DNA from: Verrucomicrobiota bacterium
GTDB taxonomy: Bacteria; Verrucomicrobiota; Kiritimatiellia; CAIQIC01; JAGNIJ01
NCBI GenBank assembly: GCA_043803015.1
Contig: JAZDKK010000023.1
Coordinates: 20,946-84,945 of the forward strand
Length of the DNA stretch: 64,000 nt
Direction of reading: 5' to 3'
The notes beneath the pieces are model-generated. The model was given only the letters and a program-made list of their open reading frames with translations. It searched no databases and was not told where the DNA came from. Below, piece by piece: positions 7,656-64,000 of this stretch. Position 1 is the stretch's first letter; the number at the start of each line of letters is the position of its first letter. The translations under genes were made by a program, and so were the position numbers.

Positions 7656-7656
7656 G

Positions 7657-9036: not shown

Positions 9037-9088
9037 AGGTCCGAAACCATATCACGCCCGTCAAGCAAGTCACGGGAACGCCCGAAGC

Positions 9089-9271: not shown

Positions 9272-9321
9272 GGCGACGCCTCCTTCCGAACCGTACTGCC
9301 GCACCTCCTGCGGACGTGTTC

Positions 9322-10791: not shown

Positions 10792-10832
10792 GGTCTCAGA
10801 ACAGAGCTGGCCCAAAATCACGGCGGCACTCC

Positions 10833-12963: not shown

Positions 12964-12965
12964 GA

Positions 12966-13889: not shown

Positions 13890-13954
13890 CAAGACCTTCC
13901 CCTCCCCCTGTCCCGGCGCACCGGGCGACGGCCCGGGAACGAAATCACCCGAAC

Positions 13955-14485: not shown

Positions 14486-14511
14486 GCCGAGAAGCTGGAG
14501 ACCGACCTGCG

Positions 14512-42065: not shown

Positions 42066-42066
42066 G

Positions 42067-43191
42067 TCAAATCGACTTCCGCGTGTTGTGCGCCGCCAAG
42101 ATGTTGAACAGGATGCCGAGGGCAAGCATCCCCCCGAGCTGCGGCCAGAGATCGTGGAGCGCCGCGCCCTTCAGGATGATCTCGCGCAGGGCGGCCACGA
42201 AGTACCGCGGGATCACCACCACGGTCAGCGCCTGGATCGGGACCGGCATGTTCTTGATCGGGAAGATGAGCCCGGAAAGGATGACCGACGGCAGGAGCGA
42301 CGTGATGATGGCGATCTCGAAGGCCACGCGCTGCGACTTCGTCACCGACGAGATCAGCACGCCCATCCCCAGCGCGGCGAAGAGGAACAGCAGGGTGGCC
42401 AGGCCGAGGAGGAAGAACGAGCCGCGGACCACCACGCCGAACAGGACGTAGCCCAGGATCAGGATGATCGTCATGGTGACCAGGCAGATGAACACATACG
42501 GCAGGAGCTTGCCCAGGATCAGCTCCTCCGGCCGGAGCGGCGACACCATCATCTGCTCCATGGTCTCCCGTTCCTTCTCGCGCACGATGGACATCGAGGT
42601 CGCCACCACCGCCGAGAGCATCAGCAGCATGCCGATGAGGCCCGGCACCAGGAACCGCGCGCTGATCAGCTCCGGGTTGAACCAGATGCGCGGCTCCGGG
42701 ACCACGAAGGGAAGCGCCGCCGGCACGCCGGCTTTTCCCAGCGCGTCCGCGCGGAGTTTTCGCGTGGCGCGATCGGTCAGCGCATCCATGTAGCCCACCG
42801 CCGTCAGGGCCGCGTTCGCATCGGATCCATCCACGAGGAACTGCACCTTGACCGTTTCGCCGCGCGAGAGCCCACGGGCGTATCCCCGGGGGACGGCCAG
42901 CACGGCCCGCACGCGCCCGCGGTTGAGCAGGTCGTCCGCTTCCTGGATCCTCGAGAGCGTGCGGACGCGGTCGAAGTAGGGATTCTGAAACAGGCTGTCG
43001 AGGAAGGCCCGGCTCTCCTGCGTCCGGTCGAGGTCGAGCACGCCCACGCGGATATGCTTCACGTCGAACGACAGGGCATAGCCGTAGATCACCAGCAGGA
43101 AGGCCGGCACGAGGATGAGGACGCCGAGCGACAGCGGGTCGCGGCCAATCTGCCGGAACTCCTTCTTGAAGACCGCCCAGAAGCGCCTCAT
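42067..43191 (-). CDS. ABC-2 type transporter permease (paralog)
   Basis: MRRFWAVFKKEFRQIGRDPLSL.. It has the same architecture as the downstream permease. Confidence 0.85.
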   Translation of the reverse strand: MRRFWAVFKKEFRQIGRDPLSLGVLILVPAFLLVIYGYALSFDVKHIRVGVLDLDRTQESRAFLDSLFQNPYFDRVRTLSRIQEADDLLNRGRVRAVLAVPRGYARGLSRGETVKVQFLVDGSDANAALTAVGYMDALTDRATRKLRADALGKAGVPAALPFVVPEPRIWFNPELISARFLVPGLIGMLLMLSAVVATSMSIVREKERETMEQMMVSPLRPEELILGKLLPYVFICLVTMTIILILGYVLFGVVVRGSFFLLGLATLLFLFAALGMGVLISSVTKSQRVAFEIAIITSLLPSVILSGLIFPIKNMPVPIQALTVVVIPRYFVAALREIILKGAALHDLWPQLGGMLALGILFNILAAHNTRKSI

Positions 43192-44147
43192 GATTTCTGC
43201 CTTTCAGCCTGCCGCTGCACCAGCCGCACGAACGCATCCTCCAGGGACACCGCCACGGCCTCCACGGCGCGCACGTCAAGCCCGCGCCCGCGGATCGCCT
43301 GTTCCAGCGTCCCCGGCGTGTACGCCCCGCGCCGGCAGAACACGTGCAGGTGCTGGCCGAAGTACGTGGCCGCCGCCACTCCGGCCAGTCCCTCCATCTC
43401 GTCGAGGGCGCCGCGAAAACGGAGCAGCGTCACCTCGAACAGGTCCTCGTCCACCGCCGTCCCCTTGATGGCCCTGGGCGTGTCGAGGGCCACCAGTTGT
43501 CCCCCGCTGATGAAGCCGAGCCGTCCGCAGTATTCCGCTTCGTCCATGAAGTGCGTGGTGATCAGTATGGTTACGCCGCGAGCCGACATGTCCTGGATCA
43601 GGTCCCAGAACAGGCGCCGCGACACCGGATCGACGCCGCTCGTGGGTTCGTCGAGGAACAGGATGGGCGGCTCGTGCAGAATGGCGCATCCAAGCGCCAG
43701 CCTTTGCTGGAGCGCGCCCGAGAGGGTTCCGGTCAGATGGCTCTCAAACCCTTTGAGCCCCGCCATCCCGATGACTGATGCCTCCCGGTCGCGGAGCCGG
43801 CGGCCTTCGAGCCCGTACACCCCGCCGAAGAACGCGATGTTCTCCTCCACGGTCAGGTCCTTGTAGAGACTGAACTTCTGGGACATGTAGCCGATGTTCT
43901 GGCGCACCTTCTCCGGGTCCCGGTTGATGTCGAACCCGCCGACGGTGGCGGTGCCGACTGTCGACGACAGCAGCCCGCAGAGCATCCGGATCGTGGTGGA
44001 CTTGCCGGCGCCGTTGGGCCCAAGGAAGCCGAAGATCTCGCCCCGGGTTACGCTGAAGCTGAGCCGGTCCACGGCGGTGAACTTGCCGAAGACCTTGGTC
44101 AGGTCCCGCACTTCGATCACCGGTGCGCTGTTATCGCCTAGGTCCAC
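43188..44147 (-). CDS. ABC transporter ATP-binding protein
   Basis: It has the Walker A GPNGAGKST, the signature LSGALQQRL and the Walker B ILFLDEP. It overlaps the permease start by 4 nt. Confidence 0.9.
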   Translation of the reverse strand: MDLGDNSAPVIEVRDLTKVFGKFTAVDRLSFSVTRGEIFGFLGPNGAGKSTTIRMLCGLLSSTVGTATVGGFDINRDPEKVRQNIGYMSQKFSLYKDLTVEENIAFFGGVYGLEGRRLRDREASVIGMAGLKGFESHLTGTLSGALQQRLALGCAILHEPPILFLDEPTSGVDPVSRRLFWDLIQDMSARGVTILITTHFMDEAEYCGRLGFISGGQLVALDTPRAIKGTAVDEDLFEVTLLRFRGALDEMEGLAGVAAATYFGQHLHVFCRRGAYTPGTLEQAIRGRGLDVRAVEAVAVSLEDAFVRLVQRQAERQKS

Positions 44148-44165
44148 GGCTTCGATTCCTTTCGC

Positions 44166-45530
44166 TCATGGCTTCCCGGCCCGAAGCAGGCCCATGGCGT
44201 GGTCCAGCCCAGCCCGGGCCAGGGCCACGTCCGCCCGGGCCGCGATGACTTGGTTCTGTGCCTCGGTGAGCTGGGCATGCGCATCGAGCACGTCGGAATG
44301 ACGGGCCAGGCCGTTCTTCCAGAGGTCCGTTGCCGCGGCGAGGTTGCGCGTGGCGCTCAACTCCGCGCGCTCGGCGACGGTCACCCGCTCCAGGGCATCC
44401 TTCAGGTTGATGCCCGCTTCCTTGACCTCGAGCGTGATCTGTTCGTTCTTGTGCTGGAGCCGCAGGTGGGCCTGGGTGGCGCGGGCGGCGGCCTCCGAGG
44501 CTCGCGCGCGGGTGAGTCCCCAGTCCAGCAGGTTCCATGTCACGGCCACGCCCACGTACGTGTCGTCCTGCCACTCGTCCGCCGGCGGGATGTTGAGGAT
44601 GTTCGGATTTGCCTGTTCGTAGTGCGCGGTCAGGAAAAGCTGGGGCCGTAGGCCCGCTCGGCTTGCCTTCGCTGCGGCTTCGGAGGATTTCGCCTCCAGT
44701 TCGCCCGCGGCCCGGTCCGGCCGGTTGGAGGCCGCCGCGCCCAGCGACTCCACTTCGGGCGGCACGGTCTGGCCGGGCGGCACGGCGGCCTGCTGGGGAA
44801 CCGCGTTGCCGGGGAGCTCGCGGCAGGTGAGGAAGGTGATCCGGGCGCGGGATACCTCCGTGCGGCGCCGCGCTTCTTCAAGGCGAAGGCGGGTCTGGTC
44901 GAGCAGCACGTCGGTGGCCAGCGCGTCGTTGTCGGTGGCGAGGCCTGCCGCGTGGAGGTTGTGCATGTCCGTGGCGTGGGCCGCCATCCGGTCCGTCGCC
45001 GCTTTCAGCGCCTCGAGCGAGTAGTAGGCTTTGGACCAGTTCCAGTAGGCTGTCAGCGCTTGCAGGGCGAGATCCGACTCGGTGCTGCGGCGCGTCTCGC
45101 GGACCGCTTGACGCTGGTAGTTCGCTCCCTTCTTCTCGTTCCCGATCCGGCCACCGGTGTAGACCGGCTGGGAGAGCCGCACGGCGGCGCCGTAGCGGTC
45201 CGGGATGGCCGGGATCACCATGCCGGGGCCCAAGGCCGAATCCGTCAGGCCCTCGTAGTGTCCGGCGTGGGCGTCAAGGCTGAGCGAGGGAAACGCCTGG
45301 GCATCGGCCTGTGTCTTCTGCGCCTGGGCGACAGCCACCTCCTGATCCGAGAGCTTGAGCACAGGGCTGTACGCCAGCGCGTCAGCCACCACCCGCTCGG
45401 GACTGACGGTGGGGTTGTTCTCCTCGGCTCGCACCAGCGCAGGCAAGCCGACCAGAAGCAGAGTCAACCCGCCCAACAGGACCCGACATTCGGCATTCGG
45501 CCATCGGCCATCGGCCATGGTGCGTTTCAT
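44166..45530 (-). CDS. TolC-family outer membrane efflux protein
   Basis: The start is MKRTMADGRW.., followed by a signal peptide. It has the duplicated TolC coiled-coil/beta-barrel repeat architecture. The ORF-track 711-aa version over-extends upstream. Confidence 0.85.
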   Translation of the reverse strand: MKRTMADGRWPNAECRVLLGGLTLLLVGLPALVRAEENNPTVSPERVVADALAYSPVLKLSDQEVAVAQAQKTQADAQAFPSLSLDAHAGHYEGLTDSALGPGMVIPAIPDRYGAAVRLSQPVYTGGRIGNEKKGANYQRQAVRETRRSTESDLALQALTAYWNWSKAYYSLEALKAATDRMAAHATDMHNLHAAGLATDNDALATDVLLDQTRLRLEEARRRTEVSRARITFLTCRELPGNAVPQQAAVPPGQTVPPEVESLGAAASNRPDRAAGELEAKSSEAAAKASRAGLRPQLFLTAHYEQANPNILNIPPADEWQDDTYVGVAVTWNLLDWGLTRARASEAAARATQAHLRLQHKNEQITLEVKEAGINLKDALERVTVAERAELSATRNLAAATDLWKNGLARHSDVLDAHAQLTEAQNQVIAARADVALARAGLDHAMGLLRAGKP

Positions 45531-46474
45531 GTCTTGTCTCCTTGTCCCAAAAGCGCCACGAACACATCCTCCAGCGACGGCGGCACTTCCCTGAACGTGG
45601 CCGGCCCCAAGCCCTGCTCGCCGAGCCACCGTTCCGATGCTCGCGCGTCCTGCTCGCCTTCCCGGGTCCAGTAGTGCACGCGGTCTCCGTACAGCACGAC
45701 GCTGGCCGTGGTCCGCTTCGCGCGGAGCGCCTTGTACACGGCCGCCGGTGCGTCCGTCTCCACGCTGTACACCTTGCCCGGCATGGCAGCCTTCACCTCG
45801 TCCGGCGTCCCCGTCATGAACATCCGGCCGTGGTGGATCAGTCCGATGCGGTGGCAGCGCTCGGCCTCGTCCAGGTACGGGGTTGTCATCACGATTGTCA
45901 CGCCCCGCTCGAGGATCCCGCTCAGGATGTTCCAAAACTCGCCGCGGGAGACGGGATCCACGCCCGTGGACGGCTCGTCCAGGAAGAGGAGGTCGGGCGT
46001 GTGGACCAGCGTGCACGCGAGGGCCAGCTTCTTCTTCATGCCGCCGGAGAGCGCCTGGGCGAGCCGGCGACGAAACGGCGTCAGCCGGGTGAACTCCAGC
46101 AGCTCGTCCCTGCGCGCCTGGAAGCCGCTGACCCCATGAAGCTCCGCGAGGAACTCGATGTTCTCGTCCACCGTGAGATCGCCGTACAGCGTGAAGTTCT
46201 GCGAGAGGTAGCCGATGCGCTTCTTGATCTGTTCGGCTTCGCGGCGAAGGTCGAACCCCAGGACCTGCCCCTGGCCGCCGGTGGGTTTCAGGATGCCGCA
46301 CAGGAGCCGGATAGCCGTGCTCTTGCCGGCGCCGTCCGGTCCGACCAGTCCGAACATCTCCCCCCGCCGTACATCAAGGTCCAGGCTCGCCACGGCGGCC
46401 ACGTCCCCAAACAGCCGCGCGAGACCTTGGGTCGTCACTGCTGGAACATCTTCTGTAGTAATCTGTTGCATCAC
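45527..46474 (-). CDS. ABC transporter ATP-binding protein (second ATPase)
   Basis: It has the Walker A GPDGAGKST, the signature LSGGMKKKL and the Walker B LLFLDEP. Confidence 0.9.
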   Translation of the reverse strand: MMQQITTEDVPAVTTQGLARLFGDVAAVASLDLDVRRGEMFGLVGPDGAGKSTAIRLLCGILKPTGGQGQVLGFDLRREAEQIKKRIGYLSQNFTLYGDLTVDENIEFLAELHGVSGFQARRDELLEFTRLTPFRRRLAQALSGGMKKKLALACTLVHTPDLLFLDEPSTGVDPVSRGEFWNILSGILERGVTIVMTTPYLDEAERCHRIGLIHHGRMFMTGTPDEVKAAMPGKVYSVETDAPAAVYKALRAKRTTASVVLYGDRVHYWTREGEQDARASERWLGEQGLGPATFREVPPSLEDVFVALLGQGDKT

Positions 46475-47235
46475 TTCGCCGATTCAATGTATCCGTCCGC
46501 CGGCATTCCGGGCTTGAAGACACCTTCGGGGTTCTCGAGCGTGATCTTGACGCGATAGACGAGCTTCGCCCTCTCGTCCGGCGTCTGCACGTTGCGCGGC
46601 GTGAACTCCGCCTCCGGCGAAACGAAGGTTACTTTGCCGAGGTACATCTTGTGGTCGCCGTCGATCTTCACGTTCGCCGGCTGGCCCAGTTTCACCCGGC
46701 CCAGGCGGTCCTCCGGGACGTAGATCGAAAGCCACACCTCGTCGAGCCGCGACAATGTCACGAGCGGCGCACCGATGGCAACCATCTCCCCTTCTTCTCG
46801 GCTCCGCACGGTAACCACCCCGTCCATGGGGGCCCTCACCGTGCAGTCGGCAACGGCCTTCTCCGCCAGCGCCAGCCGGGCGCGGGCCAGGTCCAGCGCG
46901 GCCTGTGCATCATCCAACTGCTTCTGCGTCGCGCTCTTCCGCTCGAAGACCTGCTGGATGCGTCTCAGGTCGGCCTCCGCGGCGCGGGCGGCCGCGGCAG
47001 ACTCATCGCGCCGGAACTGGTAGTCGGTCGGGTCGATCTGGGCCACGAGGTCGCCCTTCTTCAGCGCATCGCCCTCCTGGGGCGGAAGGCTCTGGAGCCG
47101 TCCCGCGACCTGCGGCGCCACCTCGACCTGCGTGCACTCGATCGTTCCGGATCTGTCGGGCTTGCCGTTACCCAGCCCGCAGCCTGACGCCAGCAGGGCC
47201 AGCGCTGCAGCAGCCATGAGCCATCTTGCGTTCAT
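46471..47235 (-). CDS. HlyD-family efflux periplasmic adaptor (membrane fusion protein), lipoprotein
   Basis: The lipobox is LLASGCG. It has a coiled-coil hairpin and a beta-barrel domain. Confidence 0.85.
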   Translation of the reverse strand: MNARWLMAAAALALLASGCGLGNGKPDRSGTIECTQVEVAPQVAGRLQSLPPQEGDALKKGDLVAQIDPTDYQFRRDESAAAARAAEADLRRIQQVFERKSATQKQLDDAQAALDLARARLALAEKAVADCTVRAPMDGVVTVRSREEGEMVAIGAPLVTLSRLDEVWLSIYVPEDRLGRVKLGQPANVKIDGDHKMYLGKVTFVSPEAEFTPRNVQTPDERAKLVYRVKITLENPEGVFKPGMPADGYIESAK

Positions 47236-47256
47236 CGGTGTGGTCTCCTTGTTCGG

Positions 47257-47883
47257 TCAGTGCTCGACACTCGAAGGCAGCGCCCAGCCGTGCACCAGCA
47301 GGTCCACGATCTGGGCCCTTCTTTCTTCCGGGTCAAAGGGCGGAATCGGCGCTGATTTCAGGGTCATGTACGGGATGATGTCTTTCACCTGCAGGTTGAA
47401 GAGGCATATGCCCATGATGCTCCACCAGGCGTGGACAGGGTGTATTTCCCTCAGCTCCCCGGCTTGCATCCCCTCCCTTAGGATTTCGAGCGGCGTGAGC
47501 ACTCTGCTCTTGAGGAAGCCAGCCAGCGTCTGTCCCAGGAGATCGCCATGCACGCTGAACGCGAGCAGCATCAGGCGCATGCGATGCGGGTACGCGGTGT
47601 AGTAGTCAAACACACCGTTGACCAAGCAGGCGAGACGCTCGCGCGCGCCGCGGAAGGCGCGCTTCTGCTGGCGCAGGTGTTCGAGAAATCCGGCGAGCAC
47701 CATCCGGATGCACTCCATGAACAGGGTATGCTTGTTCTCGAAGTAGTAGTAGATCAGCGCGCTGTTCACGCCCGCCGCCCGTCCGACCCGGCGGATCGTC
47801 GCGCCCTTCCATCCCTCCTTCGCGAATATGTCCACGGCTGAATGGAGGATCTTCTTGCGCTGTTCCGACTCGTATCTTCCCAT
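47257..47883 (-). CDS. TetR/AcrR family transcriptional regulator
   Basis: N-terminal HTH ILHSAVDIFAKEGWKGATIRRVGRAAGVNSALIYYYFENK. Confidence 0.85.
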   Translation of the reverse strand: MGRYESEQRKKILHSAVDIFAKEGWKGATIRRVGRAAGVNSALIYYYFENKHTLFMECIRMVLAGFLEHLRQQKRAFRGARERLACLVNGVFDYYTAYPHRMRLMLLAFSVHGDLLGQTLAGFLKSRVLTPLEILREGMQAGELREIHPVHAWWSIMGICLFNLQVKDIIPYMTLKSAPIPPFDPEERRAQIVDLLVHGWALPSSVEH

Positions 47884-54350: not shown

Positions 54351-54941
54351 CTATTTCTTCCTCGACCTGCGGATCGCGACCGCCGCCAGCCCCGCGCCGA
54401 CCAGCATGGCCAGGGTCGTCGGCTCCGGGATGGTCGAGACGATGTCCATTTCCGCCAGCTCCATCTGCTGGTTGCCGAGGCCCGTGCTGATGGTGACCTT
54501 GGGCTTGACCAGCTTGGTGTTGGCATCCCAGGAGAACCCTTGAAGCGCATGATTCGTGTTGCCCACGAAGGTTCCGTCGGGATGAATCGTCAGCGCGGAC
54601 AGGTAGTTCGAGCTGGCGTCGAACTGATCGAAGCCGACCTGGTAGCTCATCGAGCCGGAGATGTTGCTGACCGCGAATGAGAGGGTGGCCGCGCTCCACG
54701 TGTTGCTGTCGAAGGCCAGGTACTCGACGGGCGAGTACGCGATCGCCGCGCTGTTCGACAGCACGGAGAACATCCCGTTCGAGCCGTCCGAGAACCAGAA
54801 CGGCCCGGCATCGGGCTGCGACTGCCAGACGTAGGTCCAGCCGCTGACGCTTGAAAGGTCGTCGTGGTACAAGATGACGTCCGCCGAGGCCGCCCGGCCC
54901 CACATCAAGGCGCTCCCTACAACCAGCCATATCTTTCTCAT
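54351..54941 (-). CDS. PEP-CTERM sorting domain-containing protein
   Basis: Signal peptide MRKIWLVVGSALMWGRAASA. The C-terminus IPEPTTLAMLVGAGLAAVAIRRSRKK is the PEP motif plus a transmembrane helix plus a basic tail. Confidence 0.8.
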   Translation of the reverse strand: MRKIWLVVGSALMWGRAASADVILYHDDLSSVSGWTYVWQSQPDAGPFWFSDGSNGMFSVLSNSAAIAYSPVEYLAFDSNTWSAATLSFAVSNISGSMSYQVGFDQFDASSNYLSALTIHPDGTFVGNTNHALQGFSWDANTKLVKPKVTISTGLGNQQMELAEMDIVSTIPEPTTLAMLVGAGLAAVAIRRSRKK

Positions 54942-55037
54942 CGCGTGCTTGCTCCTCTGATGGTGTTTCCTAGTTCCCGGGAACCACTCCCGTAAGAGTT
55001 ACGGCGTTCTCACTCCCGCCGCGCCCGGGCCAGAGTG

Positions 55038-55063
55038 TGATAAACTTTATCAACCGTGTCAAC
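55038..55063. promoter_or_regulatory. palindromic motif TGATAAACTTTATCAA next to TTGACA, upstream of PEP-CTERM gene 1
   Basis: GATAAA-C-TTTATC is a perfect palindrome. On the minus strand it reads GTTGACACGGTTGATAAAGTTTATCAC, ~100 nt upstream of the start at 54941. Confidence 0.35.
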
Positions 55064-55115
55064 CACAAAAAGGGCATCCGCTCCTCGCCGAGCGAATGAG
55101 GCGGCAGAATCTCCC

Positions 55116-55225
55116 GATTCACCCAGGGCCGCAGGACCCCAAAAGAGGCATGGCAGGGATGTCGGAGCATCCCTGCCATGACCGTCACTCCCATCTCTCG
55201 GAGGTAATGGGAGGTTGTGTGATTG
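55116..55225 (-). repeat. conserved structured 3' element downstream of PEP-CTERM gene 2
   Basis: Homologous to 54226-54350. Its stem is CTCCCAT..ATGGGAG, whereas copy 1 has CTCCCATG..CGTGGGAG (a U-G pair versus a U-A pair). Confidence 0.5.
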
Positions 55226-55233
55226 TCGTTGTT

Positions 55234-55920
55234 CTATTTGCTTCGACGACGGCGCAGAACCGTCAACCCGGCGACCGCGAGTCCCAGCATACCCAGCGTT
55301 GCCGGCTCAGGCACGGCCTGCGCGAAGGGGTTATCGTCCCTGAACTGGACACGGCGCACCATGAACCCTTCCGTGCTGAGCTCTGAGTTGCCTTCGCCCA
55401 CCAGGATGAATTGGGTGTTGGTGTAGGCACCGCCGACCCCTGGCTGCCAGATCGAGAGATCATAAACGTAGGCTCCGGGGTTGTAGATCACCGTGCCATT
55501 TCCCTGGTCGCCACCAGAAGTCCCGAAGCAGTTCGTCTGCATCTGGATCTCCATGTAGCCTGCGCTCGACTCCCCCGACACGCCGATCTTGACGTCGCCC
55601 CTCACGTCCCACAGATCAATGTACAGATATTTGTACGTCTGCAGGTTCGCCGCGTCCACGCCCGTGCCGTACCAGATGCTTCCGTAACCCGGCCCGTTCG
55701 TGATTGTCGCATTCCCGGCATACTCGCCGTTCGTGTAGTACGGCACAAAGGCTGTTGGCTCCAACAGCTTGTCTCGGCCCCACTCATCGATATTCCCATC
55801 CGCCGGGTTCACGTCGTTCGTCCACGTCTCGTACCCCCAGATGATGGTGGCCGGAGCCGTCACTGCTCCGCACAGCACCAGCCCTGCCACCATACCCATC
55901 AACAACAACTTCTTCATCAC
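55234..55920 (-). CDS. PEP-CTERM sorting domain-containing protein
   Basis: The start is GTG-ATG MMKKLLLMGMVAGLVLCGAVTA, with RBS GGAGGA. The C-terminus is VPEPATLGMLGLAVAGLTVLRRRRSK. Confidence 0.8.
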   Translation of the reverse strand: MMKKLLLMGMVAGLVLCGAVTAPATIIWGYETWTNDVNPADGNIDEWGRDKLLEPTAFVPYYTNGEYAGNATITNGPGYGSIWYGTGVDAANLQTYKYLYIDLWDVRGDVKIGVSGESSAGYMEIQMQTNCFGTSGGDQGNGTVIYNPGAYVYDLSIWQPGVGGAYTNTQFILVGEGNSELSTEGFMVRRVQFRDDNPFAQAVPEPATLGMLGLAVAGLTVLRRRRSK

Positions 55921-55988
55921 TCGTCCTCCGTCTGAGTACGGATTCCCAACAGCGGGAATCTCAACTCTGCCGTAAACCTTACAGCAGA

Positions 55989-56007
55989 TTGATAAACGAT
56001 GTCAATA
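55989..56007. promoter_or_regulatory. TTGATAAACGATGTCAA motif upstream of PEP-CTERM gene 2
   Basis: On the minus strand it reads TATTGACATCGTTTATCAATC, ~65 nt upstream of the start. It shares the TTGACA..GTT.AT.AA pattern with 55038-55063. Confidence 0.3.
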
Positions 56008-56111: not shown

Positions 56112-56140
56112 TTGACATATTGACAGTATTTATCAATAAT
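56112..56140 (+). promoter_or_regulatory. near-consensus sigma70-type promoter for the giant downstream gene
   Basis: TTGACA (56112-56117), a 17-nt spacer, then AATAAT (56135-56140). It lies ~80 nt upstream of the ATG at 56222 in an AT-rich divergent region. Confidence 0.45.
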
Positions 56141-56221
56141 CGCTACCGCTGCGGCCGGGCGAGAGGGAAACCGTGAGGTTTACGCCCGCTCGGGCAGACC
56201 ACAGGCAGGTGTAGGCAGTTC

Positions 56222-59200
56222 ATGAGGCACGGAAGGCGGCTGGAACGGGCGGGAGGAGCGGCGCTTGGAGGCGCCGGCACGGTCGCGGGACTGTTGTCGG
56301 TCTTGTTTCTCTGCCGTGCGGCAGGCGCGGGCGGGCCGGCGGCGTCCTGGTCGTGGTCCTTCAACCGCCCTCTGCAGGCCACGGAGGTGATGTGGACAAA
56401 CGTGACGTGGTCGCTGAACGTTGACGGTAACACGGCCCTTTCTTCGACCTCCGGTGCGGCAGGTTATGTCATGTTCACGAACATCGCCGTGAACCTCGAC
56501 ACCCACCCTATCCTGGAACTCGATGCCCCTGGGGCCCAGGGCCACTGGACGCTGGAGGCCGGCCTGCACGGCTCCTCCCTCTCCAACGTGCACGCGAGCG
56601 TGAAGCCGGGCGCCGTGTCGGTGAACCTGAGCGAGCGGTTCGGCTGGACCGGGGCGCAGAGCCTTGACCTCCGCGTGTCATGCTCGAACCGGGTCGAACT
56701 GCGGGAGTTGAGCCTTTCCGTGAAACCCGGCTGGGTGCTCGTGGACGGCTTCGACACGCATCACTGGGAGGGCGAGTTCCAAAGCCTCTTCTTCGGCATC
56801 AATCCGCACGTGACTAACAACGGCGGCTGGATCCATCCCTGTACCGGGACCTACTCCACGGCGCATCCCGTGGAGGGAGAAACTGCCCTGCGCGTTTCCG
56901 CCCCCATCGTCCCGGGCGACGCGGCCAATTTCGCCTACCTCAAGGCGGTGCTGCCGGAGCCGGAGGACTGGTCGAATCACCGGTTCCTGACCTTCGACGG
57001 CTACGTCGAGCAGGCTCCGCTAATCATGCCCTCCGGCGGCTTGGTCCTGAGGAACGATCGAGGCGAGGAGAACCACGTGACGCTGATCCTCGGCTGGCAG
57101 ATGTTCGAGTGGGAGAACCGCCAGACCACGTTCCCGCTCCAAGGCAACATGATGAAGGGTGTCCAGAACAACTACACGAACTGGGAAATACGGCCGATAC
57201 CCGGGAGCCTACTGACCAACGTGACCGAGGTCACCGTGGGATTCGAGTACTACTCCGACCCCGAGCTCCAAACCAACTTCGTGCACCTGGACAACATGCG
57301 CCTGGATTCGGTCCGCATGTGGGACGCGTTCGAGGGGCCTGAGTACGGGTGGCACGGCACGAACCCCGCCGTCCGAACGGGGATCAGCGGCAACCGGACG
57401 TTGAGCGGCAGCGCGGGGGCGCTCTGCATCAGGTGGACCAACTCCTCCGGCCGGATATCGGCGGACACGCGCGGGGCGGCCCGGGAGGACAACTGGAGCT
57501 CCTACGCCTACGTGAAAGCCCACGCGTGGGCCGATCAGACCAACACGCGCGTCCGTCTCGTCGTCAACGGAACGCACACGACCACCGTCGCCGCCGTCGG
57601 CACGACGGGGACGTGGAACGCCATCGCCTGGAACAGGCCCGCCGGCGTGACCTCCGTGTCCAACCTGGCGTTCGAAATCGTGGACCCGCCGGCCGAGGGG
57701 CGGGTCTACATCGACCAGCTCATGGTGGGCGCCTACCCGAGCCGGATCGAGTCCGTCCAGGCCCTGGCCCTCCGGGACCGCAACCGGCTGACGTGGTCGC
57801 TCTCCGACACCGCCGGCGTGAAGAGGGTTCGCGTGGTCTGCAATACGAACGCCCTGCCGACCGGCCCCTCGGACGGCACGGTCGTGCTGGACCAGCCGCC
57901 GGGGAGCAGCGGAGATTTCTCCTTCGACCACGAGGGCGTTTCGGCAGGCGTCGTATACCACTACGCCGTCTTCACGCAGTACGACGACGACAGCTTCTCG
58001 CCGGTGACGGCGGACGCCGCGGCCGAAGTGTCCCGGGATTTCCTGGCGTTGGACGGCGGCGGCTACGAGGCGGCGTTCAGCAAGGTCAACGGTGCCCTGT
58101 TGTATCTCTACGACCGCGGCACGGGCCGCACCCTCTCCTACGGCAACGAGGCGCTGAGCCTGTGGCGCGTGGTCTTCGTCCACGAGTCCATCCCGGCGAT
58201 CGAATCCGGCTGGTTCAGCCCGGAGGAGGACACGCTGAAGTTCTCCTACACGCAGAGCCCCCTGACGCTCCGCTACAGCTACCTCAACGGCACGCAGTCG
58301 CTGGACGTCGCGGTGACGGTGGACACGTGGTCGACCAACCGGCTGGTCCTGCGGGTCGGCGTCAGCAACCACACGGCCGAGGCGATCCGGCGCGTCGGCG
58401 CGCCCCGGCAGCTCCTCTTCGCGATCACCAACATCAACGGCGTCGTATTCCCCGTGCAGGAAGGCGTGAGGCTGACGAGGGAGTACTTCGAGAAGGGCCA
58501 CTACATGTTCGAGCCGCGGCCGTGGCTGTTCGCGGACTTCATCGGCCTGGACTCAAGCGACGGCCTGTTGAGCTTCTACGCCATCCAGGACAGCACGTAC
58601 GAGGCCGAGCTGTTTCCGAGGCACGACCCGGCGCGCCCGATGTTCCAGCCCTGCGTGCTGGGCGTCGGCGCGGCCATGAACACCCGGGGCATGGCGATCA
58701 TGGACTACGACGCCGTCACCTACATCCCGCCCGGCGGCCACTGGACCAGCCCTGCCCTGGTCCTGGAGACCGGCGGCGGGTCGACCCGGGACGCCGTGGC
58801 CAGCTACAAGCAGCTCAACAGCTTCAACGACACGAATCTCTTCCCGACGCTGCAGCAGAAGCTCGACGCGTTCGGATGGTTCGACCGGATCGCCCGGGCC
58901 CCCGTCCTGACCATCGAGTGCGAGCTCTCCGTGGACTGGCAGAAGGCGCCGCAGGGCCGGCTCTGGCAGACGATCGAGAACGAGTGGGTTAACGTGCTGC
59001 CTCGGGACAGCATCCTGCATTTCACCCACTGGCAGGAGGGAACGCTCGAGGACCGGCACCCCGACAGCCAGCCGATCGTGGAGTCGAAGTTCGGGTCCAC
59101 CAACGACCTCATCCACATGCTGGCCGCGCTCCACCAGACCAACGACTGGCTGGTGATGCCCTTCTGCGATTGGCTGGTCTGGAACAAGCCCGAGGACCTG

Positions 59201-62200
59201 GTCTACCAGGACGGGAAGCTGGTCCCCCGCCCGGAATCCTGCACCAAGGTGCGCAGCCCCGACACGCCGCTCCTCGACTACCGCGGCTACATGGTCAAGC
59301 CCTGGCACACCAACGTCTGGCAGGCCAACACCAACCTCATGGGGTTCTACACGACGAACCAGCCGGTCGACCTGATGTTCATGGACATGACCTGCGAGCG
59401 GAGCTGGCGCTACACGCGCGTCGACCAGGACGCGAACGGGGTCGACGACCGGATCGTCGTGGGCTACACGCAGGGCGTCATCGACGAGAACCACGAGCTC
59501 AAGCGGCTCAAGCCCATCTTCACCGAGGGCCTGTTCGACCGGATGATGGGCGAGGTGTCAGGCTACTGCGGCTCCCTGCGGCAGAAACGACTCCTGGACT
59601 GGCTGGCCCACATGGGGAACGAGTTCGAGGACTGGGTGGTTTACCCGCTGGCCGCCGACGTTGCCCACCTGCACGTGGGCTTCTACCAGCACAACCTCAA
59701 CACGCCGGTGTTCCCGGACAGGAAGCTGCTGCTCACGCATTACACCTTGATGGGCTACGGCTACCTCGTGGATGTGGCCCACTGGTACAAAGAGAACAAC
59801 GAGCGCGGCGAGAACTGGATGTATATCTGCGACGCCTTCCAGAAGGCCGTGGCGGCCAAGTACTTCGGCAAGCCGCTCAGCGCGTACGTGCCGGCCGCCG
59901 GCGGCGACCCGCGCGTGATCCAGATGTCCTACGGAAGCGGCCCCGACGAGATCACGATCCTGGCCAACTTCCACAGCAACGAGACGTACAGCACCGGCGG
60001 TTACGTCCTATCCCCGGAAGGGTTCCTGGCCACCACGCCGGATAACCGCGTGATGGCCGACATCTTCACCAATCTCTTCCACGGCGCCGCGCTCACGCCC
60101 GGCGAGCACTTCATCGCGATCGACCGCACGTCCGCGACCGAGATCACCGTCCGGCACCCGCACGGGCCCGACACGCCGCTGCGCCTGCCGCGGCCGGCCG
60201 CCTGGACCAACAAGGTGTTCGCTCGCTGCGTGCTGGAGGACGGCTCGGAACTGCTCGCACCGGATTGGGTGTCGACGTCCGGCTCCGACCTGGTGCTGGA
60301 CTGCCGCCAGCGCACGCCCGGCGGGAGCAAGATCTCGAAGTTCATCCTGTTCGATGCACCGCTCAGCGCCAACCTGCCGCTCTACTTCCTCTCGGAGCCC
60401 CTTTTCGAGCTCGAGAACGAGACGCAGACGTGGGTCCGCGTGCGCGCCAGTAAGCCGGTCACGGCGGTCGTCCAGTACGGCGTGAACGGCGGTTCGAGCT
60501 GGGCCGTGACAAACCATGTCTTCTCCTATTCGCAAATGAGCTTGGTCGACCTTCCAATCCTTGGAACCGACTACTGGTTCCGGGTCACGATCACGGACGC
60601 GCAGGCGAACTCGGTCTCGAGCGGCACGGCGACCTACACCGCGCTTCGGAGCTTCTGGGGAGATGATTTCCTGACACCGAAGATCCACGTGAGCTTCGAC
60701 CTGGGTCCGTACGTCGAGAAGGATATCGTGTACAACGAGGGCGATGCCGCCAACGACGTGTTCGGCGACCGGCCGGGTGATGTCCACGGCTTCTGCGAAG
60801 ACGGCTGGTCCAACGGCGCCACGCGGGCAGCCGGCCTGCCGGCCAACCGGATCGTGCGGAGCACGGCGCAGGGCCTCGAGTACCGCCTCCTCCCCTACAG
60901 CACCGCCAACGTCATCGAGCTGTGCACATGGAGCAATGCCCCGGCCGAATCCTATGTGCTCGATGCGCCGGTCACGGCGCGCTACGCCCGCATCGGCATC
61001 CTGGCGGCCTCGGTGGGAGGCGATGCGACCTTCACGATCCTGTTGCGCTACGCCGACGGCACCGTCGCGACCAGCACGTGGGAGGCGGCCGACTGGCGTC
61101 AGCCGGCGGCGACCAACGTCGCGTTCGTCTTCACCAACCTGAATCACGTGGTGGCCGCGGACGGCACGATCCAGGGCGCCGCTGAACACCGGCTGTGCGA
61201 GTACGTGCTCGACAGCAACCGGGGCCTCGACAGCACGAGAGATCTGGCCGGTGTCACGATCGCCAATCGTCCGCTCTACGGTCCCGCCGCGACCAATGCC
61301 TACGCCGCGATCTTCGCTGTCAGCGGCTACGAGATCACCAGCGGCTGGCGCGACGACTACAACCACGACGGCCCGTGGCCGTGGAATGCGCGGCTCTACA
61401 CCAGCAACGGCTGGGGCGTCGTGACGGCGGACGCCGCGCTGTGGCAAAGCACGAACTACGGCAAGGTGCTTTCCGGCATCCTGCAGGCCGACCTGGTCCA
61501 GTTCCCGATCCTGGAAGTCTTTGTGCCGAAGACCGAGATGTGGGGCCGGAGCTGGTGGGTCCTCTCCCTGCAGGACCAGGACCCGCCCTACTCCAGGGTC
61601 CAGCTCTTCGAGGACCGCCAGCTCGGCACGGGCCGGCTGATCCTGAACATCCCGGAGATGACCGGCTGGTCCGGCCACAAGAAGTTCGCCGTTGAATTCG
61701 GGATCTACAACACCGAGATGGCGGAGCAGCACCTCTTCATCGACTACGTGCATCTCCGGCGGGACACGAGCGTGGGATGGGGGGACGGGTTTGCGCCGCC
61801 GCTCGATTCCTGGATCACGGAGGGCAATTCGCCCGGCACCCATGCGTGGCTGATCGACAACCACAACGGCACCGCCACGCTGGCCCAGGACGGCCATGCG
61901 CAGGGCTGGGGTGCCGCGTATTCCGAGCGTGTGGTCATGGACCTCGGGGACTACCCATGGCTCAACGTGCGCGTGGCCGGCATCACGAATCCGGCCGAGG
62001 GCGCCCATTTCAAAGTCAACGTCAACGACCAGCTCGGCCCGGCCTACCAGCAGGTCATCCCGGCCCGGTACGCGCCGTTTGAGGATTCGGGCCGCGTCGA
62101 CAAGTTCGGGACGAACGCGCTCGACCAGTTCCGCGTGGCGATGGTCATCGGGGGCTCCAACCAGCTGGCCGTGGTCGACTACGTGGAGTTCGGCAAGCGC

Positions 62201-64000
62201 GGCCCGACGGCAGGACGGCTGGTGTGGGACTCGGAGACGGCGTCCCTCAAGGCCGGGCTGGGCGAGGCGATCTGGCTGGCACTGACCGCGACGGATGCGG
62301 ACGGGAATCCCATCCACTACAGCCATCGCGGCCTGCCCCCGGCGGCCACCTACGACGGCATTCTCAGGTGGACCGCGCCCACGGCCGCCGGCACATACCG
62401 CTTCGACGTATTGGCAAGCAGCGACGGCCGGATCGTGACGAGCCGCGTTTCCGTCACGGTCGTCGACAGCACCATCCAGCATGAAGCCCCGGCCTGGGAA
62501 GCCCCCTGGAAGGCTGTGGCCACGGGCGCGGTCACCCTGGCCGGAACGTACGTGCCCGAAACCACCAACCTTCTGGTCGAAGTGAGCGTCAACGGCGACC
62601 CGTACAGCACCGCCGGCGTGACACAATCGCTCGACAGCTTCACCTGGTCGGGCACGGTCTCGAGCAGCCCGGTGACGCTCGACGCGCGTGTGCGCGACAC
62701 CGACACGTCGAAGCTCAGCTCGGCCGACCGGTGCACGCTCTACTCCACGATCCTCGGTCCCGGGTTCCGCCACGCACCCGCGGTCATGATGAGGGATGCG
62801 ACGTCGGCCTGGGTCCTCGTGAAGTCGCCGACGCAGGTCGCGGCGGAAGTCCGGTACGGGATCGGCGCCATGTACCTCGCCGCAACCAGCGCGGCCCTCT
62901 CGCTGACCCATGCCCTGCCGCTCCCGGACCTGTCCCCGGCCGATCCGTATTCCTACCAGGTCATCATCACGGACGGGGCCGGGGACGCCAGGATCAGCGG
63001 CGTGCAGGCCCTCCCCGCCGCCGGCGCGCACTGGGTTGAGGAGTTCGACGGCGAACCGGCGGGCTGGGGGGAATACCTCGGCGCCTCCATCACGGCCAGC
63101 AACGGCCAGGGCATCATGGTTTTCGAAGCGACGACCTCCACGTGGGCGAAGGTTCTCTCCCCCGCGCTCGACGTGGACGTGGACCAGTTCCCGGTTCTCG
63201 AGATATCGATCGCCGAGCCCTCCCTGTGGCCGGGCGCCTACGAGATCGGCCTGCAGGAAATGGAGGGTGACTGGACCTATGTCTCCCTCGCCAACAACCA
63301 CCTGCCCGGTACGATCATCGCCAATATCCCGCGCCTATCCGGCTGGGGCGGCCGGAAGAAGTTCGCCGTAGAGATCCGGATCTACAAGGACCTTCTGGAC
63401 ACCAAGCGGCTTTTCATCAACTACGTCGAGCTGCGCAGCGCCGCGAACGTGGCCTGGTCGGAGGAGTTCAACCCGCCGCGCACCACCTGGGGCTACGCGT
63501 ACAACGCGCTCCTCACGAACATCGGGGGCGGCACGGCGACGCTCCGGCAGTCCGGCGGCAGCGAGGGCTGGGGCTGGCTGTTCTCCGAGTTGATCGTCGC
63601 CGACAGCCGGGAATACCCGTGGATGAGGGCCGGCGTGACCGCCATGGACATGGGGGCCAACTTCAAGGGCGTCATCAAGGATGAATGGCGCACCAACTAT
63701 GTGACGGCCATTGACCGATGGGACACCTCGTTTACCGCCTCGGGCCGTTTCGGCATCCCCCGGGCCGGCGTGAGCAGGCTCGACGTCCTCCGCGCGGGGC
63801 TCGCGATCGCCGGCGCGGGCGCTGATGCCGTGGTGGATTCGGTCGAACTCGTAAAACTGGCGCCGGGCGCGACGCTGGCCTGGGACCCCGTCTCCGCCTC
63901 GTACAAGTCCGGCCCGAGCGCTGCGCTTTCCCTCCCGCTTACGGCGACGGAATATGGCGGCAGCCCCATCCAATACTCGGCACAGCACCTGCCGCAAGGC
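56222..64000 (+). CDS. giant secreted multi-domain protein (>2590 aa, continues past the window end) with repeated CBM-like beta-sandwich modules, FN3-like and cadherin-like Ig domains and a possible glycoside-hydrolase-like core
   Basis: Frame 2 stays open from the ATG at 56222 to the window end. No ORF-track entry in this frame starts after 56222, which fits there being no stop. It has a signal-like N-terminus MRHGRRLERAGG..LLSVLFLC. The module ..DQFP(I/V)LE(I/V)..W..GW(S/G)G(H/R)KKFAVE..IY..LFI(D/N)YV.LR recurs at ~61.5 kb and ~63.2 kb. A second module type lies at ~61.9 kb and ~63.6 kb. All antisense ORFs here have mirror-image high-GC composition. Confidence 0.7.
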   Translation, partial: MRHGRRLERAGGAALGGAGTVAGLLSVLFLCRAAGAGGPAASWSWSFNRPLQATEVMWTNVTWSLNVDGNTALSSTSGAAGYVMFTNIAVNLDTHPILELDAPGAQGHWTLEAGLHGSSLSNVHASVKPGAVSVNLSERFGWTGAQSLDLRVSCSNRVELRELSLSVKPGWVLVDGFDTHHWEGEFQSLFFGINPHVTNNGGWIHPCTGTYSTAHPVEGETALRVSAPIVPGDAANFAYLKAVLPEPEDWSNHRFLTFDGYVEQAPLIMPSGGLVLRNDRGEENHVTLILGWQMFEWENRQTTFPLQGNMMKGVQNNYTNWEIRPIPGSLLTNVTEVTVGFEYYSDPELQTNFVHLDNMRLDSVRMWDAFEGPEYGWHGTNPAVRTGISGNRTLSGSAGALCIRWTNSSGRISADTRGAAREDNWSSYAYVKAHAWADQTNTRVRLVVNGTHTTTVAAVGTTGTWNAIAWNRPAGVTSVSNLAFEIVDPPAEGRVYIDQLMVGAYPSRIESVQALALRDRNRLTWSLSDTAGVKRVRVVCNTNALPTGPSDGTVVLDQPPGSSGDFSFDHEGVSAGVVYHYAVFTQYDDDSFSPVTADAAAEVSRDFLALDGGGYEAAFSKVNGALLYLYDRGTGRTLSYGNEALSLWRVVFVHESIPAIESGWFSPEEDTLKFSYTQSPLTLRYSYLNGTQSLDVAVTVDTWSTNRLVLRVGVSNHTAEAIRRVGAPRQLLFAITNINGVVFPVQEGVRLTREYFEKGHYMFEPRPWLFADFIGLDSSDGLLSFYAIQDSTYEAELFPRHDPARPMFQPCVLGVGAAMNTRGMAIMDYDAVTYIPPGGHWTSPALVLETGGGSTRDAVASYKQLNSFNDTNLFPTLQQKLDAFGWFDRIARAPVLTIECELSVDWQKAPQGRLWQTIENEWVNVLPRDSILHFTHWQEGTLEDRHPDSQPIVESKFGSTNDLIHMLAALHQTNDWLVMPFCDWLVWNKPEDLVYQDGKLVPRPESCTKVRSPDTPLLDYRGYMVKPWHTNVWQANTNLMGFYTTNQPVDLMFMDMTCERSWRYTRVDQDANGVDDRIVVGYTQGVIDENHELKRLKPIFTEGLFDRMMGEVSGYCGSLRQKRLLDWLAHMGNEFEDWVVYPLAADVAHLHVGFYQHNLNTPVFPDRKLLLTHYTLMGYGYLVDVAHWYKENNERGENWMYICDAFQKAVAAKYFGKPLSAYVPAAGGDPRVIQMSYGSGPDEITILANFHSNETYSTGGYVLSPEGFLATTPDNRVMADIFTNLFHGAALTPGEHFIAIDRTSATEITVRHPHGPDTPLRLPRPAAWTNKVFARCVLEDGSELLAPDWVSTSGSDLVLDCRQRTPGGSKISKFILFDAPLSANLPLYFLSEPLFELENETQTWVRVRASKPVTAVVQYGVNGGSSWAVTNHVFSYSQMSLVDLPILGTDYWFRVTITDAQANSVSSGTATYTALRSFWGDDFLTPKIHVSFDLGPYVEKDIVYNEGDAANDVFGDRPGDVHGFCEDGWSNGATRAAGLPANRIVRSTAQGLEYRLLPYSTANVIELCTWSNAPAESYVLDAPVTARYARIGILAASVGGDATFTILLRYADGTVATSTWEAADWRQPAATNVAFVFTNLNHVVAADGTIQGAAEHRLCEYVLDSNRGLDSTRDLAGVTIANRPLYGPAATNAYAAIFAVSGYEITSGWRDDYNHDGPWPWNARLYTSNGWGVVTADAALWQSTNYGKVLSGILQADLVQFPILEVFVPKTEMWGRSWWVLSLQDQDPPYSRVQLFEDRQLGTGRLILNIPEMTGWSGHKKFAVEFGIYNTEMAEQHLFIDYVHLRRDTSVGWGDGFAPPLDSWITEGNSPGTHAWLIDNHNGTATLAQDGHAQGWGAAYSERVVMDLGDYPWLNVRVAGITNPAEGAHFKVNVNDQLGPAYQQVIPARYAPFEDSGRVDKFGTNALDQFRVAMVIGGSNQLAVVDYVEFGKRGPTAGRLVWDSETASLKAGLGEAIWLALTATDADGNPIHYSHRGLPPAATYDGILRWTAPTAAGTYRFDVLASSDGRIVTSRVSVTVVDSTIQHEAPAWEAPWKAVATGAVTLAGTYVPETTNLLVEVSVNGDPYSTAGVTQSLDSFTWSGTVSSSPVTLDARVRDTDTSKLSSADRCTLYSTILGPGFRHAPAVMMRDATSAWVLVKSPTQVAAEVRYGIGAMYLAATSAALSLTHALPLPDLSPADPYSYQVIITDGAGDARISGVQALPAAGAHWVEEFDGEPAGWGEYLGASITASNGQGIMVFEATTSTWAKVLSPALDVDVDQFPVLEISIAEPSLWPGAYEIGLQEMEGDWTYVSLANNHLPGTIIANIPRLSGWGGRKKFAVEIRIYKDLLDTKRLFINYVELRSAANVAWSEEFNPPRTTWGYAYNALLTNIGGGTATLRQSGGSEGWGWLFSELIVADSREYPWMRAGVTAMDMGANFKGVIKDEWRTNYVTAIDRWDTSFTASGRFGIPRAGVSRLDVLRAGLAIAGAGADAVVDSVELVKLAPGATLAWDPVSASYKSGPSAALSLPLTATEYGGSPIQYSAQHLPQG

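Follow-up and report, generated by a model that had tools for sequence, protein, structure and literature searches.

What does a gene that runs for almost ten kilobases in a bacterial genome encode, when its product is recognized by no curated model? A 64,000-nucleotide stretch of the genome of a Verrucomicrobiota bacterium (assembly GCA_043803015.1, contig JAZDKK010000023.1, positions 20,946 to 84,945; hereafter the window, with all window positions numbered from its first nucleotide) ends within such a gene, which begins at position 56222 of the forward strand. Its product, hereafter the giant, is a 3,273-residue protein without a single domain recognized by curated sequence models, while structure prediction sets its core beside the glycoside hydrolase (GH) families GH129 and GH101, and hundreds of uncharacterized relatives of the core were found. 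We consider it reasonably probable that the giant is an exported, sugar-regulated, multi-modular retaining glycosidase of an uncharacterized family, in which an array of modules binds or spaces the enzyme on its polymer.

Reading frame, coding strand, and full length

A preliminary description of the window had reported an open reading frame of more than 2,590 amino acids (aa) that starts at 56222 and runs off the end. Translation of this frame (56222-64000, +) gave 2,593 codons and zero stops, where approximately 59 stops would be expected from the base composition and the probability of observing none is about 8e-27. Upstream, the frame is first closed by a stop at 56174, and reading the sequence directly revealed no alternative start codon from there to the ATG at 56222. 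Residues 1-2593 of a 3,273-aa database protein (P0001) match the translation exactly; this protein is annotated as "hypothetical protein" on a 97.7-kb contig of a Verrucomicrobiota metagenome-assembled genome (MAG; locus tag V1873_02035). Hence, the end of the gene is projected at approximately position 66043, about 2 kb past the window, and the window holds the 5' 79% of a 9.8-kb gene.

The GC contents of the first, second, and third codon positions (GC1, GC2, and GC3) in this frame are 0.61, 0.48, and 0.91 in a genome of 65% GC, and the GC3 value marks the frame as coding. Long spurious reading frames are common in a genome of such composition, and an antisense frame of 1,097 aa does exist at 60008-63301 (-), which would be the real gene if the long forward frame were an artefact or a pseudogene. 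However, the antisense frame has a GC1/GC2/GC3 of 0.89/0.50/0.63, and its product is of aberrant composition, dominated by Arg, Gly, Val, and Ala and almost devoid of Trp, Tyr, and Asn. Because its GC1 reflects the GC3 of the forward frame and its composition is aberrant, it was identified as a mirror artefact and not a gene, in agreement with the preliminary description. The two checks proposed there, a careful re-translation and a comparison of GC3 between the strands (0.91 against 0.63), both favored the forward frame. In addition, the forward frame has colinear homologues with 44% identity over 3,200 residues, where substitutions keep the frame, and its translation yields a confident fold. 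An antisense gene is thus already refuted by codon-position GC, homologues, and fold, and its remaining probability is negligible.

A core with the fold of GH129 and GH101

The whole protein and ten separate modules were compared with Pfam, NCBIfam, and PDB sequences, where no match was found. When aa 600-1345 were used as the query of an exhaustive phmmer search over 1.84 billion representatives, relatives of the core were found in 380 clusters at a cutoff of E<=1e-3 and in 60 at E<=1e-30. Many of these relatives are standalone proteins of about 770 aa that align from end to end, and every relative with a source name is annotated as hypothetical. A word-indexed homology search recovered only the protein itself when queried with the whole protein, and nothing, parent proteins included, when queried with a piece of the super-repeat or an alignment of its Y1 and Y2 modules (see below). 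Since the exhaustive search found relatives, this failure is not read as orphan status.

Among 49 aligned core relatives, 39 matched DUF6259 (PF19773; E<=0.01) and 10 matched DUF5696 (PF18952), which places the core in the same superfamily of uncharacterized predicted glycosidases. The giant itself and its closest giant relatives matched neither model. By these profile matches, the core is related to DUF6259 at the superfamily level and is not a member by model. In the literature searched, there was no paper mentioning DUF6259 or DUF5696, nor one on a new family near GH129 and GH101.

An AlphaFold2 (AF2) model of the core was built with the 49-sequence alignment and reached a mean predicted local distance difference test (pLDDT) of 90.9 and a predicted template-modeling score (pTM) of 0.92. 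The modeled core, encoded at 58040-60256 (+), consists of a beta-sandwich (aa ~600-854), a (beta/alpha)8 barrel (~855-1214), and another beta-sandwich (~1219-1314), and the barrel corresponds to the TIM-barrel-like segment that the preliminary description had noticed. A Foldseek search of PDB placed ZgGH129/DagB first (5opq and 8rzk; GH129-like; E 2e-27; template-modeling (TM) scores 0.60 and 0.67), followed by NagBb of GH129 (5wzp; E 3.5e-21; TMt 0.73) and EngBF of GH101 (E ~2e-19; TM ~0.41 and 0.26). More distant matches were the alpha-galactosidases and a galactosaminidase of GH36 (E ~1e-18 to 1e-13; TM ~0.4-0.55) and the sulfoquinovosidases and others of GH31 (E ~1e-13 to 1e-11; TM ~0.45-0.5). 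The three-domain fold of GH129 is present in the model, where the top hits 5opq, 8rzk, and 5wzp all had a Foldseek probability of 1.00; GH101 and GH36, which like GH129 comprise retaining alpha-glycosidases, have this layout as well.

At the level of sequence, the 49-sequence core profile matched 5opq in its C-terminal part (E 1e-7) and 5wzn over 45 residues that contain an HxxxW...HPDxxP motif (E 3e-3), and phmmer of the protein against PDB gave no GH129 match. CAZy families are defined by sequence, and by this measure the giant falls outside GH129. In its mode of action, however, it most likely resembles the enzymes of GH129 or GH101. The earlier characterization of the protein as CAZyme-like and poorly described is therefore apt, as the core has a GH129/GH101-like fold, its DUF6259-related family is uncharacterized, and its annotation is hypothetical.

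At least 88% of the 49 members share six acidic residues (D948, D1050, D1055, D1068, E1102, and D1106). Except for D948, they are conserved in at least 90%, are located at or near the ends of barrel strands, and are invariant in a narrow six-sequence core alignment (A3) of five giant-family cores and the shorter relative P0006. An HPD motif likewise shows no variation in these cores, and its conservation in the family as a whole is at least 88%. Asp1055, in the segment MFMD (59384-59386, +), is located just after barrel strand 4 and is the candidate nucleophile, and Glu1102, in the segment IFTE (59525-59527, +), is located at the end of barrel strand 5 and is the candidate acid/base; each occurs in 94% of the 49 members and is invariant in the giants. 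D1055 is roughly colinear with D435 of NagBb and D486 of DagB, and E1102 with E478 of NagBb. Of the catalytic Asp/Glu pair, DagB keeps only the Asp (PMC5698469).

An ordered super-repeat of accessory modules

Approximately 20 beta-sandwich modules flank the core and account for about 75% of the protein. Self-comparison with chunked queries, module hidden Markov models (HMMs), and hhalign revealed a super-repeat of about 555 aa, which occurs three times in the giant in copies that are 30-48% identical. Its unit is composed of five module types named X, Y1, Y2, Ig1, and Ig2. According to the HMMs, the order along the protein is signal peptide, N1, N2, N3, FN3-like, core, X, INS, (Y1, Y2, Ig1, Ig2, X) x2, Y1, Y2, Ig1, and a C-terminal domain. 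The preliminary description had proposed two repeat families of about 100 aa; the repeats it quoted are real, being copies A and B of one module, while the proposed number gives way to five module types in a triplicated unit. The Y1 and Y2 modules are homologous to each other (hhalign probability 97.7%), as are N1 and Y1 (probability 96.8%, E 2e-10), and we therefore count a single Y module type that is present seven times.

N-terminal to the core, the N1 module (aa 38-168; 56333-56725, +) is the Y1 homologue detected by hhalign, and the N2 (aa 169-372) and N3 (aa 373-516) modules, delimited by module HMMs at 56726-57769 (+), are predicted beta-sandwiches resembling carbohydrate-binding modules (CBMs). 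The subsequent FN3-like module (aa 517-606; 57770-58039, +) owes its label to a sequence pattern only and is conserved in the giants, P0017, and P0061. C-terminal to the core, copy A of the super-repeat begins with an FN3-like X module found by self-comparison and module HMMs (aa 1390-1483; 60389-60670, +). It is interrupted by INS (aa 1490-1709; 60689-61348, +), an inserted beta-sandwich modeled with mixed confidence, and continues with Y1 (aa 1714-1862), Y2 (aa 1863-2020), Ig1 (aa 2021-2100), and Ig2 (aa 2101-2183), which were delimited by self-comparison, HMMs, and AF2 at 61361-62770 (+). Copy B includes X (aa 2184-2275), Y1 (aa 2283-2421), Y2 (aa 2422-2572), and the start of an Ig1 cut by the window end (62771-64000, +), and copy C and the C-terminal domain are located beyond the window.

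An AF2 model of aa 1346-2185 (840 aa) was all-beta with a pLDDT of 77, and most of Y1, Y2, Ig1, and Ig2 reached approximately 80-95. Foldseek matched this model to generic beta-sandwich chains only, including SraP, reelin, and A2ML1, at a TM of about 0.1. Of the FN3 and cadherin/Ig-like segments in the preliminary description, the all-beta character stands, and the labels themselves are retained tentatively. Specifically, the query modules, including the FN3-like one, had no Pfam hit at E<=5 and did not reach the thresholds of He_PIG, fn3, or Pur_ac_phosph_N, while modules of relatives gave sub-threshold matches only (He_PIG at 1e-3 for Ig1; Pur_ac_phosph_N at 0.04, fn3 at 0.03, and PhoD_N for X). 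Similarly, the super-repeat profile (A2) compared with PDB sequences, and its members compared with Pfam, gave noise or sub-threshold matches only.

Four of the relatives found with the core are of giant type. P0005 (3,268 aa, from a Kiritimatiellia MAG) is colinear over its full length at 44% identity, and P0003 (4,789 aa, from a JGI metagenome) is 43% identical over about 3,200 aligned residues and contains two additional super-repeat copies. P0004 (4,147 aa, from a Spartobacteria MAG) shares about 48% identity in the N-terminal modules and core and about 33% in the repeats, and includes additional INS modules, and P0002, a fragment of 1,168 aa from a Kiritimatiellia MAG, is 56% identical over 1,163 residues. 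Copy A of the giant resembles copy A of P0005 more closely than it resembles copy B within the same protein, and the triplication is thus older than the divergence of these lineages.

The Y/N1, N2, and N3 modules also accompany the same core in shorter proteins, some of which are from Bacteroidota, Chloroflexota (Anaerolineales), and other MAGs. For example, the module HMMs detected N2 and/or N3 ahead of the core in P0006-P0012, P0014, P0050, and P0061. That these modules travel with the core is compatible with, but not proof of, their being the predicted substrate-binding modules. Locus L004, from one MAG, carries a tandem pair of 1,661-aa paralogues (P0008 family; N2-N3-core-Y1 type) at positions 4897-9882 and 10001-14986.

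Export signal and a shared C-terminal domain

The N-terminus (aa 1-37; 56222-56332, +) begins with the Arg-rich sequence MRHGRRLER, after which come a hydrophobic core (aa 14-35) and AGA|GG. Hydropathy and sequence reading thus identified the basic n-region, hydrophobic h-region, and small-x-small site of a Sec signal peptide, in line with the signal-like N-terminus of the preliminary description. The segment aa 14-35 scores highest of all Kyte-Doolittle windows in the protein and is its sole strongly hydrophobic, membrane-like segment, and an equivalent signal-like N-terminus is present in all four giants. The giant is accordingly described here as a predicted Sec-type exported protein with a signal-like N-terminus.

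At the other end (...YYQIRQVWTW), no PEP-CTERM match and no C-terminal arrangement of PEP motif, transmembrane helix, and basic tail was found, nor did the giant match a type IX secretion sorting domain (Por_Secre_tail or CHU_C); Por_Secre_tail is carried by eight of the 49 core-family relatives. The last ~75 residues of the giant (P0001 aa 3192-3271), with the pattern W..G..Y.V/L....L...FYRV/I, form a C-terminal domain absent from Pfam. The same domain ends a GH57/CBM53/CBM25 protein encoded in the window (36529-40854, -; aa 1356-1439; E 2e-14), a 4,503-aa protein encoded beside P0003 (locus L003, 3-2951; E 1.5e-20), and P0060. It may be a sorting, export, or anchoring domain for large secreted proteins of Verrucomicrobiota and Kiritimatiellia. 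The 4,503-aa protein is itself a second giant, located at L003 1-2951 and 7 kb upstream of P0003; its last 982 aa were seen, and these contain the same X-Y1-Y2-Ig1 modules ahead of the C-terminal domain.

A probable shared operator and a putative regulon

A sigma-70-like promoter, TTGACA-17-AATAAT, had been reported upstream of the gene, and it was found at 56112-56140 (+) with 11 of 12 consensus positions. Its spacer and -10 box are spanned by a 17-bp palindrome-like element, motif 1 (TTGACAGTATTTATCAA; consensus TTGATAA-N3-TTATCAA), at 56120-56136 (+). A scan of the window with TTGAYAANNTTTATCAA, allowing at most one mismatch, identified three sites (four matches, as one palindromic site scored on both strands), while 0.00 were expected. 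Besides the site of the giant, these were located at 55989-56005 and 55037-55053, upstream of two small genes that encode signal-peptide and PEP-CTERM proteins. One is the divergent neighbor of the giant (228 aa; 55234-55920, -; PEP-CTERM E 2e-6) and has the former site, and the other (196 aa; 54351-54941, -; PEP-CTERM E 1.5e-5) has the latter. Two terminator-like hairpins with T-runs follow the 228-aa gene (55149-55180 and 55075-55098, -), and the two genes are therefore probably separate transcription units, each with its own motif 1 site. Homologues of the 196-aa protein were found beside P0003 (E 2e-22) and P0005 (E 3e-11). Being adjacent and carrying the same operator motif, the two PEP-CTERM proteins are likely partners of the giant. 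Their identification as standalone Y modules was considered and rejected, with an hhalign probability of 7.9%.

A scan with the A3 alignment identified only seven MAG loci. In the loci of related giants, motif 1 was found upstream of the three other complete giants, two small-protein genes, one LacI gene, and a GH130 gene (L001 9864-9880 and 20450-20466; L003 5202-5218, 8518-8534, and 9657-9673; L009 68-84 and 2246-2262). The ten sites of four loci from Verrucomicrobiota and Kiritimatiellia all have a single orientation relative to the downstream gene, and nine lie 20-120 nt from the start codon. Motif 1 was absent from the loci of shorter core relatives. That it is a mere promoter was rejected, as its halves are only 3-5 nt apart and a separate TTGACA occurs just upstream in three cases. 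Motif 1 is probably a repressor operator that defines a sugar-responsive regulon.

A weaker element, motif 2 (CGTGAGGTTTACG; consensus CGTAAA-N-TTTACG), was located in the 5' leader of the giant at 56172-56184 (+) with two mismatches. With up to two mismatches, it also occurs at 54991-55003 and 55971-55983 in the window, at 4447, 5224, 9874, 9978, and 30650 in L003, and at 2225 in L009. It accompanies motif 1 at several promoters and also precedes another LacI gene in L003. An Rfam scan of the leader and intergenic region returned only Ref66 at 28.8 bits against a threshold of 92, which is attributable to chance.

LacI-family regulators were found near the giants, one in L001 and four in L003. 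Their mutual identity is 47-62%, and their DNA-reading heads are near-identical (signature IYDVA...GVSIGTVSRVFNNK). The LacI genes adjoin the giants in both loci, and one has motif 1 in its own upstream region; we infer that this subfamily binds motif 1. The giant loci also encode catabolic-type enzymes, including a GH99-like protein in L003 (E 5e-27) and in L009 (E 8e-25), a GH130 protein in L009 (E 1.6e-54), and a GH5 protein. Additionally, small secreted proteins composed of a standalone INS module are encoded beside the giants (L003 6697-7428; L009 1133-2182 and 14818-15537; E 1e-66 to 1e-70), one of which is N1+INS; no standalone INS protein was found in the window.

Other genes in the window

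The gene of the giant is alone on its strand in this part of the window. Upstream and divergent from it are the two PEP-CTERM genes, followed by genes for a dUTPase, an ABC exporter, a carbonic anhydrase, and an SLT-domain protein. A dUTPase and an ABC exporter also adjoin the giant in the P0003 locus, which constitutes partial synteny. No sulfatase or GH127 gene was seen near the giant in the window.

Farther upstream, a 1,363-aa Ser/Thr kinase with a Pkinase domain and a long WD40 propeller region is encoded at 28377-32468 (+), and of its 48 Pfam matches, 25 were listed, none of them a CBM. It adjoins a divergent FHA-GAF-histidine kinase gene (26506-28221, -), with which it forms a signaling pair unrelated to the giant. 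The CBMs of this region are on the separate 1,441-aa GH57 protein (36529-40854, -), which has the composition GH57+CBM53+CBM25+TSP3. An efflux-type operon (40935-47883, -) encodes a TetR regulator, an HlyD-like adaptor, two ABC ATPases, an OEP outer-membrane factor, and two ABC-2 permeases. A 711-aa reading frame in this operon (44166-46301) overlaps that of an ABC ATPase (45527-46474), and its 5' end is thus probably over-extended.

Proposed function and alternatives

If the giant is an exported glycosidase, its core would hydrolyze an alpha-linked glycan by double displacement, with Asp1055 as the nucleophile and Glu1102 as the acid/base. The module array would bind the polymer multivalently and/or hold the catalytic head off the cell, the C-terminal domain would direct export or surface attachment, and a repressor of the LacI subfamily would occlude the promoter until a sugar inducer appears. 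As for the substrate, the GH99 and GH130 neighbors in orthologous loci give a hint of a mannose-containing glycan, whereas the fold relatives of the core act on alpha-galacto-configured sugars. A broader reading would combine three propositions: that the core founds a new GH family sister to GH129 and GH101 with an undescribed specificity, that Y and INS are new CBM families, and that the giant is the centerpiece of a conserved regulon for a particular, possibly mannose-containing, glycan. The regulon would comprise the 17-bp palindrome, the dedicated LacI subfamily, the small secreted and PEP-CTERM proteins, the standalone INS proteins, GH99, and GH130. We regard this combination as a serious possibility that falls somewhat short of an even chance.

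Several observations weigh against a glycosidase. The query sequence matched no GH model, and it did not match DUF6259 even at E<=0.1 or reach the gathering threshold of 28.7 bits. In structural alignment, the core has only about 11% identity with GH129 structures, and it deviates from the family consensus at positions that include FEDQIGAR, replaced by MFMDMTCER, and the DK before FYQH, replaced by LH. The roles of Asp1055 and Glu1102 are predicted from conservation, strand order, and approximate colinearity, and the activity, stereochemistry, and substrate are all predicted for a family without a characterized member. Regarding binding, the Y and INS modules were assigned no fold by Foldseek and had no database match, and N2 and N3 had no database match that would indicate a binding role. 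No LacI gene was found in the 64-kb window. Finally, the gene contexts of the shorter core relatives P0160 and P0006, described below, suggest that part of the core family may act on self-made glycans.

The giant could alternatively be a non-catalytic surface adhesin or matrix protein, in which a GH129-like core has turned lectin and the modules serve attachment or envelope architecture. The beta-sandwich content of about 75%, the presence of SraP, reelin, and A2ML1 (adhesins and alpha2-macroglobulin-like proteins) among the best structural matches of the repeat region, the neighboring PEP-CTERM surface proteins, and the departures from consensus at some conserved core positions would all suit such a role. 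However, a TM of about 0.1 to adhesins reflects generic beta-sandwich likeness only, and neither D1055, E1102, nor the HPD motif varies among the giant-family cores (five) and P0006, all being conserved at 88% or more in the family. Many relatives have the normal enzyme format of a standalone protein of about 770 aa, and in the orthologous loci the genes for GH99, GH130, and LacI sugar regulators share this operator. We consider an adhesin unlikely, and give the same low standing to a giant that trims or remodels the cell's own exopolysaccharide (EPS) or surface glycan, being associated with biosynthesis like PslG, PelA, and Sph3 and not with nutrient acquisition. The latter would be consistent with the surroundings of P0160 (Bacteroidota; L002 1262-8352) and P0006 (Anaerolineales; L005 5556-14062), which are encoded among GT2, GT4, mannosyltransferase-like, and PIG-L deacetylase genes, and with the co-regulated neighbors of the giant, as PEP-CTERM proteins are associated with EPS-producing systems. 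In contrast, the genes called in the available sequence near the giants of four loci included no glycosyltransferase or polysaccharide-export gene, where for the window gene the upstream side was covered, and the giant loci carry the catabolic-type genes GH99, GH130, and GH5 together with LacI repressors.

The preliminary description had also suggested that the giant is the functional partner of a CBM-bearing kinase, which was not supported, as the kinase shows only Pkinase and WD40 among its listed matches, the CBMs are on the separate GH57 protein, and both genes lie over 15 kb from the giant, with unrelated housekeeping and efflux genes in between. A partnership with either the kinase or the CBM-bearing protein does draw on the C-terminal domain shared by the giant and the GH57 protein (E 2e-14), which makes a common route of export or anchoring probable for these two proteins. 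Nevertheless, no CBM was seen on the kinase among the matches listed above, and the two genes are 15-28 kb off (the kinase about 24 kb), separated from the giant by PriA, the efflux operon, and the SLT-domain, carbonic anhydrase, ABC exporter, and dUTPase genes. Neither gene has a motif 1 site, the only sites in the window being those at 55037, 55989, and 56120, and the genes called in the available sequence near other giants, with short flanks in L009, include neither a kinase nor a GH57 gene. Such a partnership is therefore highly improbable, and an exported glycosidase remains the reading that we favor.

A large part of the enzyme repertoire of Verrucomicrobiota and Kiritimatiellia, both known to specialize in degrading complex polysaccharides, is still unrecognizable by sequence. 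Characterizing one member would annotate the whole DUF6259-related family and probably yield a new GH family as well as one or two binding-module families not known before, and the shared operator offers a starting point in the search for the inducer, its regulator, and co-regulated genes. We see the giant as a good lead for enzyme discovery, and not as a new biological principle.

Comparison with known systems

The best match of the core, both in structure and by sequence profile, is ZgGH129/DagB, an exo-alpha-1,3-(3,6-anhydro)-D-galactosidase of Zobellia galactanivorans (PDB 5OPQ, 8RZG-8RZK). Its layout of an N-terminal beta-sandwich, a TIM barrel, and a C-terminal Ig-like domain is that of the core, and its authors argued that DagB forms a family separate from NagBb (PMC5698469). 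The core differs from DagB in having about 11% identity and no pairwise sequence hit. In addition, DagB is a single-unit enzyme of about 690 aa from a carrageenan locus with sulfatases, while the core described here is part of a 3,273-aa protein with approximately 20 extra modules. The second and third best fold matches are NagBb, a GH129 alpha-N-acetylgalactosaminidase of Bifidobacterium bifidum (PDB 5WZN), and GH101 (EngBF and SpGH101). With these, the core shares the HxxxW...HPDxxP motif region, and its conserved Asp after strand 4 and Glu after strand 5 are roughly colinear with D435 and E478 of NagBb. However, there is no significant pairwise similarity, and those enzymes, which belong to gut bacteria, act on mucin-type O-glycans, a substrate to which nothing ties the giant. 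DUF6259 matches most of the core relatives and DUF5696 a minority, yet neither model gives a score for the query.

Giant multi-modular secreted CAZymes are a known kind of protein in bacteria of the Planctomycetes-Verrucomicrobia-Chlamydiae (PVC) group. The GH57+CBM53+CBM25 protein of the window resembles the giant in that both combine a signal peptide, a catalytic unit with binding or spacer modules, and the same ~75-aa C-terminal domain. In contrast to this protein, the giant is more than twice as long, its modules are unrecognized by Pfam and NCBIfam, and they are arranged in an ordered five-module super-repeat. What is new in the giant is hence a predicted DUF6259-related catalytic unit remote from GH129, a set of undescribed accessory modules, their ordered super-repeat, and a conserved probable regulon that had previously gone unnoticed.

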